Below the pieces are notes generated by a model, which saw nothing but the letters and a program-made list of their open reading frames with translations, was not told where the DNA came from and ran no database searches. From a virus: a stretch of DNA of 64,000 nt. The stretch is from the IMG/VR virus record IMGVR_UViG_3300047160_006886, positions 32,001 to 96,000 of that record. One strand, given 5' to 3'. Positions within the stretch are counted from its first letter, which is position 1. Each line of letters begins with the position of its first letter. Below are positions 3,256 through 45,431 of the stretch, one piece after another. The translations under genes and the position numbers were made by a program.

Positions 3256-3600
3256 TCAACTGAGACTTAGGTGCCATCGACCGTGCGTCAAGTAACCATG
3301 CCAGTAATACGTTCCGTGCCCGGCGCCGATAGAGTCTCTTATCGTCAGCGTGCCGTCCGCCTCTTCCGTGAACGTGTGAGGCGGGCTTTGAACGTGATGC
3401 ATCGACCTCGCTTCTCCATGCACATCCGGGTCTCGGGCTATCGGTAACAAGAAGAATACACACGGGTTTCCGTTGCTCGCGCAATTGACCGGACCGCAGT
3501 AATCTCCGGCGTCCTTCAAGATCGAATAAGGGTCTTGACCTCCCACGATTGGCAAACGCCGACCCTGCATTTCCGTTGGCATGATTAGAACCCTTCCCAA
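3256..3600 (-). CDS. Conserved small phage protein (DUF6527-like)
   Basis: TLTIRDSI...WHGYLTHGRW C-terminal motif. Confidence 0.5.
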   Translation of the reverse strand: MGRVLIMPTEMQGRRLPIVGGQDPYSILKDAGDYCGPVNCASNGNPCVFFLLPIARDPDVHGEARSMHHVQSPPHTFTEEADGTLTIRDSIGAGHGTYYWHGYLTHGRWHLSLS

Positions 3601-34558: not shown

Positions 34559-35050
34559 TCATGACTTGATCCTTCTGCAATACTCGGCGAGCAGCAAGGC
34601 ATCACACGTTGCCAAGGTCACGTTGACCTGGGGGAAGAGTTGCTGTGCTTTCTGCTTCAATCGATTCTTGAACTGTCCCTTGCTCTCGCCGTTCGAGCGA
34701 GCGATCACTCCGAGAGCCTTTTGCCACGTCCTCGGATGCACTTCGTCGAAAGGAATACCGGCGGCGGTCAGGCATCCACGAAGGAAGCCGTAAGAACTGC
34801 CAAACTTGAACATAGCACTCCCGATGTTGCCTGCCGACCCTGGCATAAACCCTCCCACCTTCTCGATGACAGCGAAGCAAGTCAGCTCCACGTGATCAGA
34901 GCGGTCTTGAACATCTGACGATCCGACGATGTCCCAAATGTCCCTTTCCGTCTTTGGCATGGCATGGAGGACCGGAGGAACATCCAAGTAATCGCAGACG
35001 ACGGCGATCCCACCCGACGCCCCCGGATCAACTCCGATGAAGATGCTCAT
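34559..35050 (-). CDS. RuvC-like Holliday junction resolvase
   Basis: IGVDPG..GG, IEKV, FKFG.SYG, P..WQK, DALLLA. Confidence 0.85.
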   Translation of the reverse strand: MSIFIGVDPGASGGIAVVCDYLDVPPVLHAMPKTERDIWDIVGSSDVQDRSDHVELTCFAVIEKVGGFMPGSAGNIGSAMFKFGSSYGFLRGCLTAAGIPFDEVHPRTWQKALGVIARSNGESKGQFKNRLKQKAQQLFPQVNVTLATCDALLLAEYCRRIKS

Positions 35051-35343
35051 GTGTCAGCCCTCGATTTCTTCTTGCTCCTTCTCCTGCCATTCGTGCGGAA
35101 CGGCATTTGGCTCACTCGCACGACCAGTCCGATGTTGATGTCACTGATCCGCACGAACAGACCCCGATCACTCGCCTCGCCTCTGATCTGCTGAGCCATC
35201 GAAGTCTGAGAGCAAAGGTAGTCTCGGCCGGCCATCACCCGGAACTCCGGCTGGGAGAACCACGTCTTCCAGTCGTACAGCTCTGGACGGCCTCGATGTC
35301 GTCTCTTGTTTTGTGTCGGTCCCGCCTCTTCGCCTTTTTCCAT
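35047..35343 (-). CDS. Small putative DNA-binding protein
   Basis: GRPELYDWKTWF motif; first gene of the leftward operon. Confidence 0.55.
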   Translation of the reverse strand: MEKGEEAGPTQNKRRHRGRPELYDWKTWFSQPEFRVMAGRDYLCSQTSMAQQIRGEASDRGLFVRISDINIGLVVRVSQMPFRTNGRRRSKKKSRADT

Positions 35344-35344
35344 G

Positions 35345-35477
35345 ATCTCATTTTATTCGATTTCCCCGGAAATCCGGGGAAAAACTAATTAGAAAAATTT
35401 TCCCAGAATTCCGTTTTTTCCTCTTTACTTCGGCGAATAAGTTTATTACCTTAATAGGTAGATTGATCATTGACAAC
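35345..35477. promoter_or_regulatory. Divergent promoter region with a rightward sigma70-like promoter and a boxA-like element
   Basis: AT-rich; TTTACT(35424)-N17-TACCTT; tgatcattgacaac resembles rrn boxA; palindrome tttccccgga/tccggggaaa. Confidence 0.6.
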
Positions 35478-35700
35478 CGACCGCAGAACCGGACGACGGC
35501 CAGCCCAGGACGGGCAAGACGAAGGCGTGCACCGGGACGCAGCGGGGGGATCGGAGGGGGATGACCCAAACCGATCCCGGCAGACCTGGCAGAACCAGGA
35601 AGTCATCCGAGTCACGCAGATCGAAAGATCGTCAGTGCTACCCTGGAACGGTTTGAAACAGGCGGAAGCCGAGACCGGGTCCATCCCCAAGCCGCGTGGC
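35478..35700 (+). ncRNA. Candidate structured RNA, family unknown
   Basis: No credible ORF; stems gggatcgg/ccgatccc, ggatgac/gtcatcc, cctgg/ccagg and gatc-GAAA-gatc. Confidence 0.5.
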
Positions 35701-35788
35701 TAGAACCTAAACCAACCTGCTCGATCATCTTGGAGCCATCCGAGAGGCAGCCCGTCCCAAGTCGGGAAGCAATGGTGAGGGGGTTCTA
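35701..35788 (+). ncRNA. Twister self-cleaving ribozyme (type P1)
   Basis: P1 tagaacc/ggttcta; L1 UAA and GAGGG; P2 acca/tggt; P3 ctgc/gcag; P4 cccg/cggg with loop UCCCAAGU; T1 CCC/GGG and T2 AC/GU. Confidence 0.85.
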
Positions 35789-35802
35789 ACCTGGAGAGAA
35801 TC

Positions 35803-36105
35803 ATGGGGTATCTACAGAATGCGATGACTGTTGGTCAACTGCGAAAAGAACTTGAAGGACTGCCGGATGACGCCGTGGTCCTCTACGTCTGCGATTACGG
35901 CGATCACTGCCACACGCAGCAAGCCCTGCCCATCTCTGAAATCGCCGACCTCGGATGCGACGAGCGGATCGAAGAGTCGGCGTACAGCAGCTCTGGCCTC
36001 TGCCTCTTAACCATCAATGATGAAGACGAGGATGACGACGAGGACAGCGAAAAGGAAACCGAAGAGGAAGAGACCGAAGACCGGAACTACATCATCCTGC
36101 GTTAG
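35803..36105 (+). CDS. Acidic early protein
   Basis: MTVGQLRKELEGLPDDA motif; GGAG RBS. Confidence 0.7.
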   Translation: MGYLQNAMTVGQLRKELEGLPDDAVVLYVCDYGDHCHTQQALPISEIADLGCDERIEESAYSSSGLCLLTINDEDEDDDEDSEKETEEEETEDRNYIILR

Positions 36106-36377
36106 CGAACTAACAGCGGGGTCTAGGATCGATCATCCGAACACCGGACTCTCCAGACCGGCCCGACCCCGCTTCTTTCTTTCTGGAGTCTCAACCCTTT
36201 ACTGGAGAAAGCCATGTCCGAGAGAGTTCACCTGGTTCCCAAGTCCATGATCGAGCAGTGGAAGGCTGAGCTGCGACGCGAGAAGCAGGTCCAGCCCGCT
36301 ATTCCCCTCGACCGGGCTATCCGGGCGGCGGCGAGCCTGCGAGCACGATTGACCCTGCGGAGAAAGGTGGTGATGGC

Positions 36378-36812
36378 ATGATCGACATCGACTTCATCAA
36401 GGCCGGCCGGGCGATCTTCACCATCGCCAACGACCAAGGCAAGTGGTACACGTACCGCGTGGACCACAAGGAAGCCCGGACCGAGGAGTTCGCTGGCAAG
36501 GGCGCTCGGACCTACCCCGAAGCGTGGTTCGTCAAGCTCCTCACCGGCCCCTCGAACGACAGTGACTACACTTACGTCGGAATCTTAAACTGCGAGCGGG
36601 TCAGGTTGACTCAACGCAGCCCTTACACCGAGGACTCGATCCCGGTGAGGGTGTTCGACTTCGCCCTGCGGGTGATCCTGGGCAAGCAAGCACTGCCGCC
36701 GGGTTACTCGATCCATCACGAGGGCCGCTGCGGTCGCTGTGGCCGCAGGCTGACGGTCCCCAGCAGCATCGAGTCGGGCATCGGCCCCGAGTGTGCGAGG
36801 AGGATGGCATGA
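36378..36812 (+). CDS. DUF6011-like protein
   Basis: GRCGRCGRRLTVPSSIESGIGPECA. Confidence 0.8.
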   Translation: MIDIDFIKAGRAIFTIANDQGKWYTYRVDHKEARTEEFAGKGARTYPEAWFVKLLTGPSNDSDYTYVGILNCERVRLTQRSPYTEDSIPVRVFDFALRVILGKQALPPGYSIHHEGRCGRCGRRLTVPSSIESGIGPECARRMA

Positions 36813-42294: not shown

Positions 42295-42528
42295 ATGAGC
42301 AAGGAAAGAGACAAACACATTGACGACTTGAACGATCTGGTCAGCTATCTTCAAAAGGAGGGATTGGACGCCGACGACCTGGAGGGAGCCGTCTGCGACG
42401 AGAAGAAAAATGAAGCGGATTTGCTTATCGAAGAAGGGCTTATGAGTGTATGCGAATACCTGATTGAAAACGGTTGGCATTTAGAAGCCATCAGAAACGA
42501 AGCAAGACAAGAAAAGGCCCAGGAGTGA
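42295..42528 (+). CDS. Acidic hypothetical protein (low GC)
   Basis: AAGGA RBS. Confidence 0.6.
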   Translation: MSKERDKHIDDLNDLVSYLQKEGLDADDLEGAVCDEKKNEADLLIEEGLMSVCEYLIENGWHLEAIRNEARQEKAQE

Positions 42529-42583
42529 CACGGCACTGTCATCCGTGAGAGGACCAGCCGCTCTTCAGGCTGGACTGTAAGGA
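42529..42583 (+). ncRNA. Unassigned two-hairpin RNA motif, copy 1
   Basis: Three pairings covary with copy 2. Confidence 0.65.
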
Positions 42584-42590
42584 AAGTGAA

Positions 42591-42821
42591 ATGAAAATCC
42601 TATTAGAGCCGCTGTTAGACTGGATCACCAGCAACGTCTATGACAGCGGGCACGGTTTGTTGGGTCCGCCCAGTTGGGTGATCGATGCCGAGACCATCTT
42701 GGACAAGCTAAGGGAGCTGGCCGGTATATCCAAACACGAAATGACTGTGGCTTATGACCAGGCAAGAATCCGAGTACATGGAAGAAACGTTGATGGGGGA
42801 ACCTACCTCGACGAGAACTGA
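42591..42821 (+). CDS. Hypothetical protein
   Basis: Lies between the two RNA motif copies. Confidence 0.6.
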   Translation: MKILLEPLLDWITSNVYDSGHGLLGPPSWVIDAETILDKLRELAGISKHEMTVAYDQARIRVHGRNVDGGTYLDEN

Positions 42822-42876
42822 CTGGGCAGCGTCATCCCAGACACGAGCGAGCGGTGTTCAGCTCGCACAGTCAGGA
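42822..42876 (+). ncRNA. Unassigned two-hairpin RNA motif, copy 2
   Basis: Same spacing as copy 1, with compensatory changes. Confidence 0.65.
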
Positions 42877-42884
42877 GTTCAATC

Positions 42885-45431
42885 ATGAAAGCCAAAGACA
42901 TCAAGCAAGGCCACCACTACGAAACGAAGATCGGCGGCAAGCTGACAGTCGTAAAAGTAGATCGGATCAACGAGGAGCGAGAGCCAACGCTGGGCACCAA
43001 CCGCTCCCGGAAGACCGGGAAGATGACTTTTGAGGTCACCAACCTCTCAACCGGCCGCAAGACCACGTTCCGGTCGGCGGCGAAGTTCCGTCGGGAGGCC
43101 ACCCCCGGCAGCCTCGTCATGGAGCATGAAAACAAACGCATCAAGAGATTGCAGGAGCAAGTTGCCGAGAAGGTCATCCGCCCGACCATCGACAAGCTAG
43201 TCGAGCAAGGAGTCCTGCCGAAGCCCACCGGCGAGGTAAAGATCGAGTACCCCAATGTCCCTTTCGCCGAGCGGGAGGCGAGACCCCCAGCGAAATCGTC
43301 GAGCGACACTCCAGGCTCCACGGCACGCTCCAGCCGCTCGACCCCACCTTCGTCCGGAACTCAGTCGACAGCAAGGACAACCGCTGCTGGTGTGAACATT
43401 GCTCAGCCGCACGGCAGCCGAGAGAATCCCGGCAGCAGCGACGAGATCGAGAGCACCGAGAACAGCTCCAGCGAGGCTACCGAATCCTCGCCGGCGAGGC
43501 CGCTGACCCACCAGCAGGTCAAGGCGATATTCGACGCGGTGGACAAGACCGAGTTGCTCAAGAAGGTCCGCTCGACAAACGATCCGACTCCCCTCTCGCT
43601 TCAGCAGTGCCAGGAGGTTGTGATGAGCGAACAGGAGGAGGTGCTCAAGATCATGAGAGAGACCAGGGGCAAGCCGGAGTTGCGAGACAAGAAGCTGCGG
43701 GAGCTGGCCAACCGACACAACCGTGGTGGAAGGAGATCGCAGACCAACACGCTGAGTGCTCCCGACGAAGCCTCAAGCCACCACACAGGACTGACTTCCG
43801 AAACATCTCCTTTGACCCTTCCCTCGTCACCGGCAGATGCAGATGTCGAGCCTGCCGGGAAGGAGTCAACAACGGCTACCGACCCAGCATCACAGCAACC
43901 CCAACTGACCCCGACGAGGGAGAAGGATGCCCCGGTAGTTGAGAACCTGAAGGAGACGCTCCAGCGGGCAATCAACCAGGTGACCGAGACGATTCCTGAA
44001 GCCGCCGGTCTCCAGGGCGATCAGCCGCAGGCATTCATCGACCTGACTACTAAGATCAGCGATGGCAAGCGGGTCGTGGTGCTGTGTGGCTTCGCCGGCA
44101 CGGGCAAGACCGTGCTGCTGACTCGGATCGCCCGCTGGGCCAAGCGGCAGAAGTACGATGTGAAAATCGCCGCCCCGACCCACAAAGCAGCATCGGTCAT
44201 TTCTCAGAAACTCGCTTCGTCCGGACCCGGTGGAACCGACATCGAGGTCCGCACGATTCATTCGATGCTCGGCTTGAGGCTGGAGCCGGATTACGAGTCC
44301 GACTCCGGCGGTCACATCCTGACTGCCCAGGACAGCAAGTCCAAGGTGAAGACCGGCCTGGTGATTTGTGACGAAGCGTCGATGGTCGGTGAAGTCCTCA
44401 AAGACCACATCGAGAAGTCGAGCAGCGACATCATCTGGGTATTCGTAGGGGATTTAGCTCAGCTCCCGCCGGTCGGCGAGAGCATCAGCGAACTCCTGGA
44501 CGAGCCGGATGCGGTGCTGGAGAACGTGCTCCGCCAGGCCCAGGGATCGGAGATCCTGAACCTGGCGACCCGCATCCGCAAGGGTGACATGAGCATGAAG
44601 CACAAGAAGGGCAAGGACGTATTCGAGGTCGCCGATGCCGAGCAGCTGTTCCAGGCCGCTCTGACCAAGTTCCGGGACCCGGCCTACCAGAAAGACCCGT
44701 CGTTCGCACGGATGCTGGTCTTCAAGAACGCAAGGCGGCAGGCCATCAACGCCCGGATGCGAGACCTGCTGGTCGGCTCCCAGCAGCCTTATGAGCCGGG
44801 CGAGTGGCTGGTCATGTACCAGCAGTTCGCTCCGGAGAAGTCGCGGCTCAATCTCATGGCCGAGGAGGCGAAGAAGTTTCCGAAGGGCGACCGCAGACGC
44901 GGCCCGGCCTGGAAGCGGTTCTTCGACTACCAGCGGCAGCTCGGCGAGTCGGTGTCAATGCTCCATGTCAGCGAGGAGGTCCGCGTGGTAGCGGTCTCCG
45001 AACGGGATGTCGATATCGACGACTACACATTCGGCGTCTGGAGCCTGACCGTCCGGACCAAGGACGACCAGGAATACGTCCTGCCGGTACTCAAGGACGA
45101 GGAGCGGGAGCGTCACTCGAAGGCCCTGGCGACCATCATGGCCAAGGCCCAGGAATATCGAGCCGAGCGGGATGAGTGCCCGAAGGGGTCGCCTGACTGG
45201 ATTGATTGGGACGAGAAGCGGAAGAAGGAGTGGGGCCGCTATTTCGGCATGGAGTCCACGTTCGCTCAAGTGGACTACTGCTACTGCATGACCACCCACA
45301 AGAGCCAGGGGTCCACGTTCGATCATGTGTTCGTCGATGTCCCCGACTTGATGTCGAGCGGCGGCATGCAACAACGAATCCTTTACACGTCGGTTACACG
45401 ACCGGCGAAAAGCCTGACCTTTTACAAGTGA
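42885..45431 (+). CDS. Dda/RecD-like SF1B helicase with long N-terminal extension
   Basis: GFAGTGKT, AAPTHKAA, TIHS, CDEASM, GDLAQLPPV, THKSQGSTF, YTSVTR. Confidence 0.9.
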   Translation: MKAKDIKQGHHYETKIGGKLTVVKVDRINEEREPTLGTNRSRKTGKMTFEVTNLSTGRKTTFRSAAKFRREATPGSLVMEHENKRIKRLQEQVAEKVIRPTIDKLVEQGVLPKPTGEVKIEYPNVPFAEREARPPAKSSSDTPGSTARSSRSTPPSSGTQSTARTTAAGVNIAQPHGSRENPGSSDEIESTENSSSEATESSPARPLTHQQVKAIFDAVDKTELLKKVRSTNDPTPLSLQQCQEVVMSEQEEVLKIMRETRGKPELRDKKLRELANRHNRGGRRSQTNTLSAPDEASSHHTGLTSETSPLTLPSSPADADVEPAGKESTTATDPASQQPQLTPTREKDAPVVENLKETLQRAINQVTETIPEAAGLQGDQPQAFIDLTTKISDGKRVVVLCGFAGTGKTVLLTRIARWAKRQKYDVKIAAPTHKAASVISQKLASSGPGGTDIEVRTIHSMLGLRLEPDYESDSGGHILTAQDSKSKVKTGLVICDEASMVGEVLKDHIEKSSSDIIWVFVGDLAQLPPVGESISELLDEPDAVLENVLRQAQGSEILNLATRIRKGDMSMKHKKGKDVFEVADAEQLFQAALTKFRDPAYQKDPSFARMLVFKNARRQAINARMRDLLVGSQQPYEPGEWLVMYQQFAPEKSRLNLMAEEAKKFPKGDRRRGPAWKRFFDYQRQLGESVSMLHVSEEVRVVAVSERDVDIDDYTFGVWSLTVRTKDDQEYVLPVLKDEERERHSKALATIMAKAQEYRAERDECPKGSPDWIDWDEKRKKEWGRYFGMESTFAQVDYCYCMTTHKSQGSTFDHVFVDVPDLMSSGGMQQRILYTSVTRPAKSLTFYK

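Follow-up and report, generated by a model that had tools for sequence, protein, structure and literature searches.

A predicted type-P1 twister ribozyme ahead of the first rightward gene in an uncultured soil phage

Known twister ribozymes number in the thousands and their chemistry is well understood, while what they do in bacteria and phages is not yet settled (PMC6765202). The twister cuts a U^A step, in which the adenine (A1) serves as the general acid (PMC6154101, PMC11662667). Approximately 94% of roughly 2600 natural candidates cleaved in vitro, and imperfections are broadly tolerated except at the catalytic residues and in the pseudoknots (PMC11662667). The occurrence of twisters near phage genes is already established (PMC6765202, PMC8782182), and they are numerous in IMG/VR; a role in the processing of phage mRNA has been suggested before and is unproven (PMC6765202). 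The twister, hammerhead, pistol, and hatchet ribozymes found near phage-like genes in bacteria and phages (PMC6765202), including the hammerheads of D. vulgaris (PMC8782182), occupy short co-oriented non-coding spacers, and the element presented in this study has the same habit. In contrast to those ribozymes, it follows a long presumed leader behind a putative divergent promoter region instead of standing between two recognisable genes, and its host is an uncultured soil phage of 59% GC with no close cultured relative. Compared with the type-P1 twisters (RF03160; Oryza sativa Osa-1-4, PDB accession number 4OJI), the element order from P1 to the P1 3' strand is the same, and the conserved nucleotides, the two pseudoknots, and the predicted U^A site are common to both (PMC6154101). 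The copy studied here differs in having an A-U instead of a G-C pair in pseudoknot T2, one flipped pair in P4, a P3 region of 34 nt, and a linker of 6 nt.

To our knowledge, twisters have no ligand dependence. In synthetic ribozyme insulators of the RiboJ type, the upstream RNA is removed and the coding part receives a fixed 5' end. Twisters built into bacterial reporter constructs (cited in PMC6765202) likewise remove upstream RNA and fix the 5' end; these reporter and insulator ribozymes are engineered, whereas the arrangement described here is natural, and it may be functionally equivalent to them by analogy. The glmS ribozyme is also a self-cleaving RNA of a 5' leader that yields a 5'-OH mRNA. 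It differs in requiring GlcN6P, and its product is degraded by cellular RNases, an example of a 5'-OH end that can direct an RNA to decay (PMC6765202).

The window, i.e., the whole stretch of DNA analysed (64,000 nucleotides), comprises bases 32001-96000 of a 111,990-bp IMG/VR virus record that is judged 93% complete. It has a GC content of 59% and belongs to an uncultured phage of approximately 112 kb from soil. Fragments identical or nearly identical to the stretch were found in four soil metagenome runs, as short pieces and with no variants. No close cultured relative was found, the only DNA match to cultured phages being a short one in the DUF6011 gene to Caulobacter phages, and the DNA polymerase has an identity of approximately 26% or less to those of cultured relatives. 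The twister lies in a divergent intergenic region of approximately 460 nt (35344-35802) on the strand of the rightward genes, and no credible open reading frame overlaps it. The sequence-only reading had placed it at the head of the early operon. Its placement at the head of the rightward genes is borne out, since the leftward genes end at 35343, the rightward genes start at 35803, and the element is between them; the label "early" is a guess taken from the gene content. Neither the window nor the other 48 kb of the genome yielded a further known ribozyme. The coordinates of all features are collected in Table 1.

Table 1. Features of the twister locus, its gene neighbourhood, and ribozymes on other contigs (window coordinates unless a contig is named)
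Feature	Position	Strand	Details
Promoter-like block (putative)	35424-35452	+	-35 TTTACT 35424-29, 17-nt spacer, weak -10 TACCTT 35447-52
GATCATTGACAAC element	35465-35477	+	start of presumed leader; conserved with L002 (alignment A1)
Presumed non-coding 5' leader	35453-35700	+	approximately 250 nt, from putative transcript start
Whole type-P1 twister	35701-35788	+	RF03160 match and descriptor match
P1 5' strand UAGAACC	35701-35707	+	pairs with 35782-35788, 7 bp
UAA	35708-35710	+	direct reading
Predicted scissile bond U35708^A35709	35708-35709	+	position in RF03160 alignment
P2 5' strand ACCA	35711-35714	+	pairs with UGGU 35773-35776, 4 bp
L2 dinucleotide AC	35715-35716	+	pseudoknot T2 with G35761 and U35762
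Optional P3 region	35717-35750	+	CUGCU/GGCAG plus inner hairpin UCUUGGA-GCCA-UCCGAGA
P4 CCCG/CGGG with loop L4 UCCCAAGU	35751-35766	+	strands 35751-54 and 35763-66, 4 bp
Linker AAGCAA	35767-35772	+	between P4 and P2 3' strand
GAGGG	35777-35781	+	conserved block
P1 3' strand GGUUCUA	35782-35788	+
Shine-Dalgarno GGAG	35793-35796	+	4 nt past P1, 6 nt ahead of ATG
First rightward gene, 100 aa	35803-36105	+	acidic C-terminal part, DYGDHCHTQQ motif, weak DUF6225 match
Structured terminator-like element	36116-36186	+	9-bp GC stem, then U/C-rich tract
Leftward genes	from 35343 downwards	-	UDG-superfamily protein, PD-(D/E)XK exonuclease, Sak4-like annealing protein
Leftward genes, continued			DNA polymerase, primase/helicase, then terminase and portal
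Rightward genes	from 35803	+	small ORF string, DUF6011/phrog_20259 protein, 717-aa protein, Dda-like helicase
Hammerhead II	L200 1781-1844	+	54 bits, above cut-off; 47 nt past first-gene homologue
Hammerhead II candidate	L006 3732-3797	+	33.6 bits, sub-threshold, E<0.01
HDV-like candidate	L013 6095-6161	+	37.9 bits, sub-threshold, E<0.01; ends approximately 10 nt before AAGGAG RBS
Twister-P5	L021 1160-1222	+	48.9 bits, above cut-off; 20 nt before ATG
Twister-P5 candidate	L011 1770-1835	-	33.2 bits, sub-threshold, E<0.01

The sequence-only reading had listed every element of a twister at this site, and direct reading of the letters verified each of them at its coordinates. Helices P1, P2, and P4 follow in P1-type order, and the chain enters and leaves via P1, which could be extended to 35698/35791 with one mismatch, as found by an inverted-repeat search. 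In the P3 region, CUGCU (35717-21) pairs with GGCAG (35746-50), and the region also has an inner hairpin of 7 bp and an asymmetric internal loop of 6 nt. Pseudoknots T1 and T2 are defined here as in section 2.1 of PMC6154101 and in PMC11662667, where T2 is the PK1 of McKinley et al. T1 consists of C35756-58 paired with G35779-81, and T2 of the pairs A35715-U35762 and C35716-G35761; A35759 faces A35778 and is placed for a trans A.A pair. All of the conserved nucleotides are present, i.e., the UAA, the C of L2, GUCCCAAG, and the GAGGG, and both pseudoknots are intact. The core positions occupied as expected are 35708-10, 35716, the L4 segment GUCCCAAGN (35754-62), the A-ending linker (35771-72), and 35777-81. 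By its position, A35709 is predicted to be the general-acid adenine, and the first G of GAGGG would be the general-base guanine when counted from the 54-nt O. sativa numbering (G45, PMC6154101). The nearest-neighbour minimum free energy (MFE) fold reproduces P1 to P4, and the twister helices are also the MFE structure inside a 400-nt precursor (ViennaRNA). The fold-energy z-score of the twister was -1.35, which is not significant; such z-scores are uninformative here because the folding ignores pseudoknots.

Infernal with the Rfam models aligned the twister-P1 family (RF03160) to 35704-35785 on the (+) strand over the full model (positions 1-68) with 42.2 bits. A search of 301 nt gave an E value of 3.1e-8; with the whole window searched against the 4227 Rfam families, E was 6.7e-6, and when this family alone was run on the 112-kb genome, it was 2.7e-9. 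The covariance-model check that the sequence-only reading had proposed thus gave a significant full-length match (E = 6.7e-6), though one below the gathering score; at that score (67.2), the window copy is not called by RF03160. This cut-off is a database rule and not a biological feature. Eight canonical phage twisters with a perfect core from five viral records (L105, L106, L120, L153, and L165) scored 61-68 bits against the same model, and seven of them, at 61-66 bits, fell below 67.2, so that the cut-off is no dividing line between genuine and false twisters. It overlooks most phage twisters, which matters for annotation. No match to RF03160 at E<=0.01 was found in 14 control genomes. The window copy scores approximately 20 bits lower than the canonical phage twisters because of its T2 substitutions, the flipped P4 pair (one C-G pair relative to the consensus), a 24-nt P3 insertion, and the 6-nt linker; the model is blind to pseudoknots and penalises both T2 substitutions. 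A hand-written descriptor independent of Infernal, which called for UAA, four of four P2 pairs, a paired T2, TCCCAAG in the loop, GAGGG, and four or more base pairs in P1, gave one match in the window and none in 300 first-order Markov resamples. The significant model match, the presence of all conserved nucleotides, and both pseudoknots support the assignment of the element as a type-P1 twister.

The A-U pair in T2 was compared with natural twisters gathered by exact core patterns. The variant core with a loop-final U was searched in viral, metagenome, and genome collections, and the canonical core in viral contigs (at least 108 IMG/VR stretches). Parsing gave 90 distinct candidates. Where the loop ends in C (74 cases), L2 has G in 72; where it ends in U (12 cases), L2 has A in 8. 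The association of loop U with L2 A is significant across the 90 twisters (Fisher p = 3.8e-7). The other four loop-U cases carry G, two of them seeming to be genuine G.U wobbles and two being chance pattern matches. The A-U variant has eight further genuine-looking examples. In an alignment of 28 sequences including the window copy (alignment A3), the T2 pair types are GC in 21, AU in 5, and GU in 1, with one mismatch, and 96.9% of all cells pair, a figure to which P1, P2, and P4 contribute partly as selection criteria. The sequences had been selected on P1 and P2, and the search pattern itself dictated P4 and T1, which leaves only T2 and P3 as independent evidence; all five pairs of P3, a helix that played no part in the selection, covary. 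T1 is invariant in all of the compared sequences, which tests its presence and cannot reveal covariation. The two departures of T2 from the consensus, G to A and C to U, compensate each other, so that the claim of a compensatory AC/GU made from the letters is backed by both the Fisher test and the pair types of alignment A3. Judging from the sequences compared, the A-U pair is a recurrent natural minority variant and not a novelty, and McKinley et al. give the 5' strand of the T2 pseudoknot as "NC" (PMC11662667). Natural linkers measure 3-7 nt and mostly end in AA, and the 6-nt AAGCAA agrees with them in both respects; natural P3 regions span 0-80 nt, and the one here has 34 nt.

Upstream of the twister, TTTACT is conserved together with its flanking sequence in L002 (alignment A1), a locus of a related phage; L002 is a complete viral record of 74 kb that encodes a homologue of the first rightward gene with 50% identity. 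The -10 sequence of L002 is TATACT. A scan of 35000-36500 for the sigma-70 consensus gave no site, and the putative promoter at 35424-35452 is proposed from the block conserved with L002 only. An element of the form G(A/G)TC(A/C)TTGACAAC is common to the 35424-35477 region of the window and to L002 2605-2675. The sequence TGATCATTGACAA was considered as a boxA and rejected: it has three mismatches to the rrn boxA, and ten such sites in the window against 6.4 expected are not above chance. Two short direct repeats of 11 and 13 nt (85-91% identical), a length that allows no firm reading, connect window positions 35601-35647 with 35734-35795, joining the leader to the part of the ribozyme that runs from P3 to P1 and the Shine-Dalgarno sequence; they could be due to chance or the trace of a duplication. 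The leader of L002, which has no twister, contains two tandem motifs of approximately 30 nt (2803-2833 and 2855-2885) that start with CCTATGACCC, contain CTAGT, and have no Rfam match.

Downstream, the GGAG that the sequence-only reading had named as the ribosome-binding site (RBS) a few nucleotides after P1 was located 4 nt after this helix, followed by the ATG at 35803; the distance from the end of P1 to the ATG is 14 nt. The protein of the first rightward gene belongs to a small family (P0001-P0011) in which the motifs DYGDHCHTQQ and YS.SG are invariant and the tail is acidic, and four members have an inserted stretch with CxxC and CPxxG that resembles a zinc ribbon. The element at 36116-36186 matched int-alpA RNA (RF02996) with 32.4 bits, below the cut-off of 35.8 (E = 0.0081), and its possible role is to end a short first transcription unit, as a terminator or attenuator.

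The position of the twister relative to its neighbours was surveyed in 51 different P1-type twisters whose flanks were long enough, most of them on viral contigs (L004-L196 and the window). A Shine-Dalgarno sequence and the start of an open reading frame of at least 50 codons were present within 60 nt downstream on the same strand in 35 of the 51, compared with 3 of 51 in a mirrored opposite-strand control. A frame of at least 50 codons stops within 60 nt upstream in 39 of the 51; the value for the window on the same measure is -3 nt. The window copy obeys the downstream rule (14 nt) and differs upstream, where a leader takes the place of a gene. The survey supports message processing just ahead of the RBS as a common role of twisters. 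In 12 of the 51 (24%), the UAA of the twister is itself the stop codon of the upstream frame, a proportion near the expectation for random frames. Where this is the case, cleavage at U^A would deprive the upstream message of its stop codon.

Since A35709, the GAGGG block, and both pseudoknots, the features in which natural twisters do not tolerate change (PMC11662667), are intact, the window twister is very likely to be catalytically active. The explanation that we favour as probable is a genuine and presumably active type-P1 twister that acts in 5'-end processing within the leader, of approximately 350 nt, of the first rightward gene. The rightward transcript would start near 35455 at the promoter-like block, and the RNA, as it folds, would cleave itself between U35708 and A35709. 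Provided that the RNA is active, two products would follow from twister chemistry, i.e., a released leader fragment of approximately 250 nt with a 2',3'-cyclic phosphate at U35708 and an mRNA that begins with a 5'-OH at A35709, buried in the double-pseudoknot body (35709-35788), followed by the Shine-Dalgarno sequence and the ATG. After cleavage, the 3' fragment retains the pseudoknots, and its 5' end is buried (PMC8782182). The likeliest role would be 5'-end processing, in which the coding RNA is uncoupled from the long leader and acquires a defined, structured, and non-phosphorylated 5' end, as twisters seem to do between cistrons in other phages. Because a 5'-OH end can target an RNA for decay, stabilisation of the mRNA is not a given. 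The locus is a sound further example of a well-known ribozyme class and not a new type of element. It is a clean anatomical case, with one ribozyme, a presumed promoter, a long leader, and an RBS 4 nt downstream, and together with the survey it makes the 5'-end processing of phage messages a testable function. As the phage is uncultured, tests must be heterologous, which limits the immediate value of the case.

Among the other explanations, an unlikely one is that the function lies upstream and that the twister is a maker of 3' ends, freeing a non-coding RNA of approximately 250 nt (approximately 35455-35708) that ends in a 2',3'-cyclic phosphate, with a secondary effect on the mRNA. The leader is long, GC-rich, and poor in open reading frames, conservation with L002 covers its first 25 nt and with them GATCATTGACAAC, and a type-P1 twister places only 8 nt of its own on the 5' product, all of which fits such an RNA. 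However, past the promoter-like block and these 25 nt, the leaders of the window and L002 differ, the fold energy of the leader is no different from that of shuffled sequences (z = -0.70), and the leader matches no Rfam family; moreover, most phage twisters have a coding gene upstream, and what stays constant is the RBS that follows closely. The survey bears also on the quite improbable case that the twister is intercistronic, as it is in most phages; a genuine small gene would then occupy the open frame 35470-35703, with its stop codon TAG (35701-03) inside P1, and the cut would separate two cistrons. The upstream frames of the survey, the twisters whose UAA is a stop codon, and the -3 nt of the window frame agree with this arrangement, but the frame was rejected as a gene: its sole start is a TTG that no Shine-Dalgarno sequence precedes, its translation (77 aa) is of low complexity and rich in R, G, D, and Q, and searches of PHROG and, by tblastn, of the related loci gave no match. 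Its third-position GC content barely varies across the three frames (0.71, 0.68, and 0.55) and does not single it out, and long chance frames are common at 59% GC. This frame is most likely non-coding.

The score below the gathering cut-off, the absence of the element from relatives, a linker (AAGCAA) longer than usual, and the 6-nt asymmetric internal loop of P3 would suit an inactive relic or a chance look-alike that has lost cleavage. We consider this very unlikely, as the E value of 6.7e-6 and the lack of any descriptor match in the 300 resamples speak against chance, no catalytic or pseudoknot position has been lost, the two departures from the consensus offset one another, the lengths of the linker and P3 lie within the natural range, and natural candidates of comparable imperfection are mostly active (PMC11662667). 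A conditional switch at the adjacent RBS, which would be opened or closed by cleavage or by alternative base pairing between the P1 3' strand and AGAACC repeats further upstream, is suggested by the Shine-Dalgarno sequence beginning 4 nt past P1, by GCAGAACC, which occurs twice in the leader (35483 and 35589), and by the short repeats that the leader has in common with the ribozyme's 3' half. In the ViennaRNA predictions, however, the unpaired probability of the Shine-Dalgarno sequence is nearly unchanged by cleavage (0.54 before and 0.49 after), as is that of the AUG; with the same accessibility in precursor and product, folding yields no translational effect, and occlusion of the RBS was rejected as a mechanism. 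The repeats are just 8-13 nt long and are not conserved elsewhere, and a switch of this kind is extremely improbable.

The twister is sporadic and not conserved in the closest relatives. It was found neither upstream of the first-gene homologues in L002 and L003 nor anywhere in the five closest related viral records (identified via the first-gene homologue and including L002), so that there is no syntenic conservation and no covariation within the lineage to draw on. Ribozymes of several classes, two of them above the cut-off and three sub-threshold candidates (Table 1), were present on other contigs, and all five are in co-oriented intergenic spacers. These contigs were found by homology to two nearby genes only (the first gene or the DUF6011 gene); the domain that they have in common is widespread, and close kinship with the phage does not follow from it. 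We suggest tentatively, as a possibility that is itself rather doubtful, that twister-P1, twister-P5, hammerhead II, and HDV-like ribozymes which are chemically unrelated, could be interchangeable cassettes in the early or replication-block spacers of the phages in this group, typically directly before an RBS, where they would act as natural insulators. If so, each downstream message would gain its own structured 5'-OH end, and the window twister would be the variant that strips a leader of approximately 250 nt from the first gene.

In the L011 candidate, the T1 partners are UGU in the loop and GCA in place of GGG, which can still pair (U-A, G-C, and U.G); this is possibly a compensatory variant of a normally invariant pseudoknot. 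In the window, two copies of a structured motif of approximately 60 nt are located at 42527-42590 and 42819-42885 on the (+) strand, each between a stop codon and the next start codon. They have a conserved GUCAUCC, a UUCAG, and an AGGA ending and match no Rfam family at E<=1. A group I intron (RF00028, 89.4 bits) was observed at 3329-3562 on the (-) strand of L024, a viral contig that shares the DUF6011 gene.
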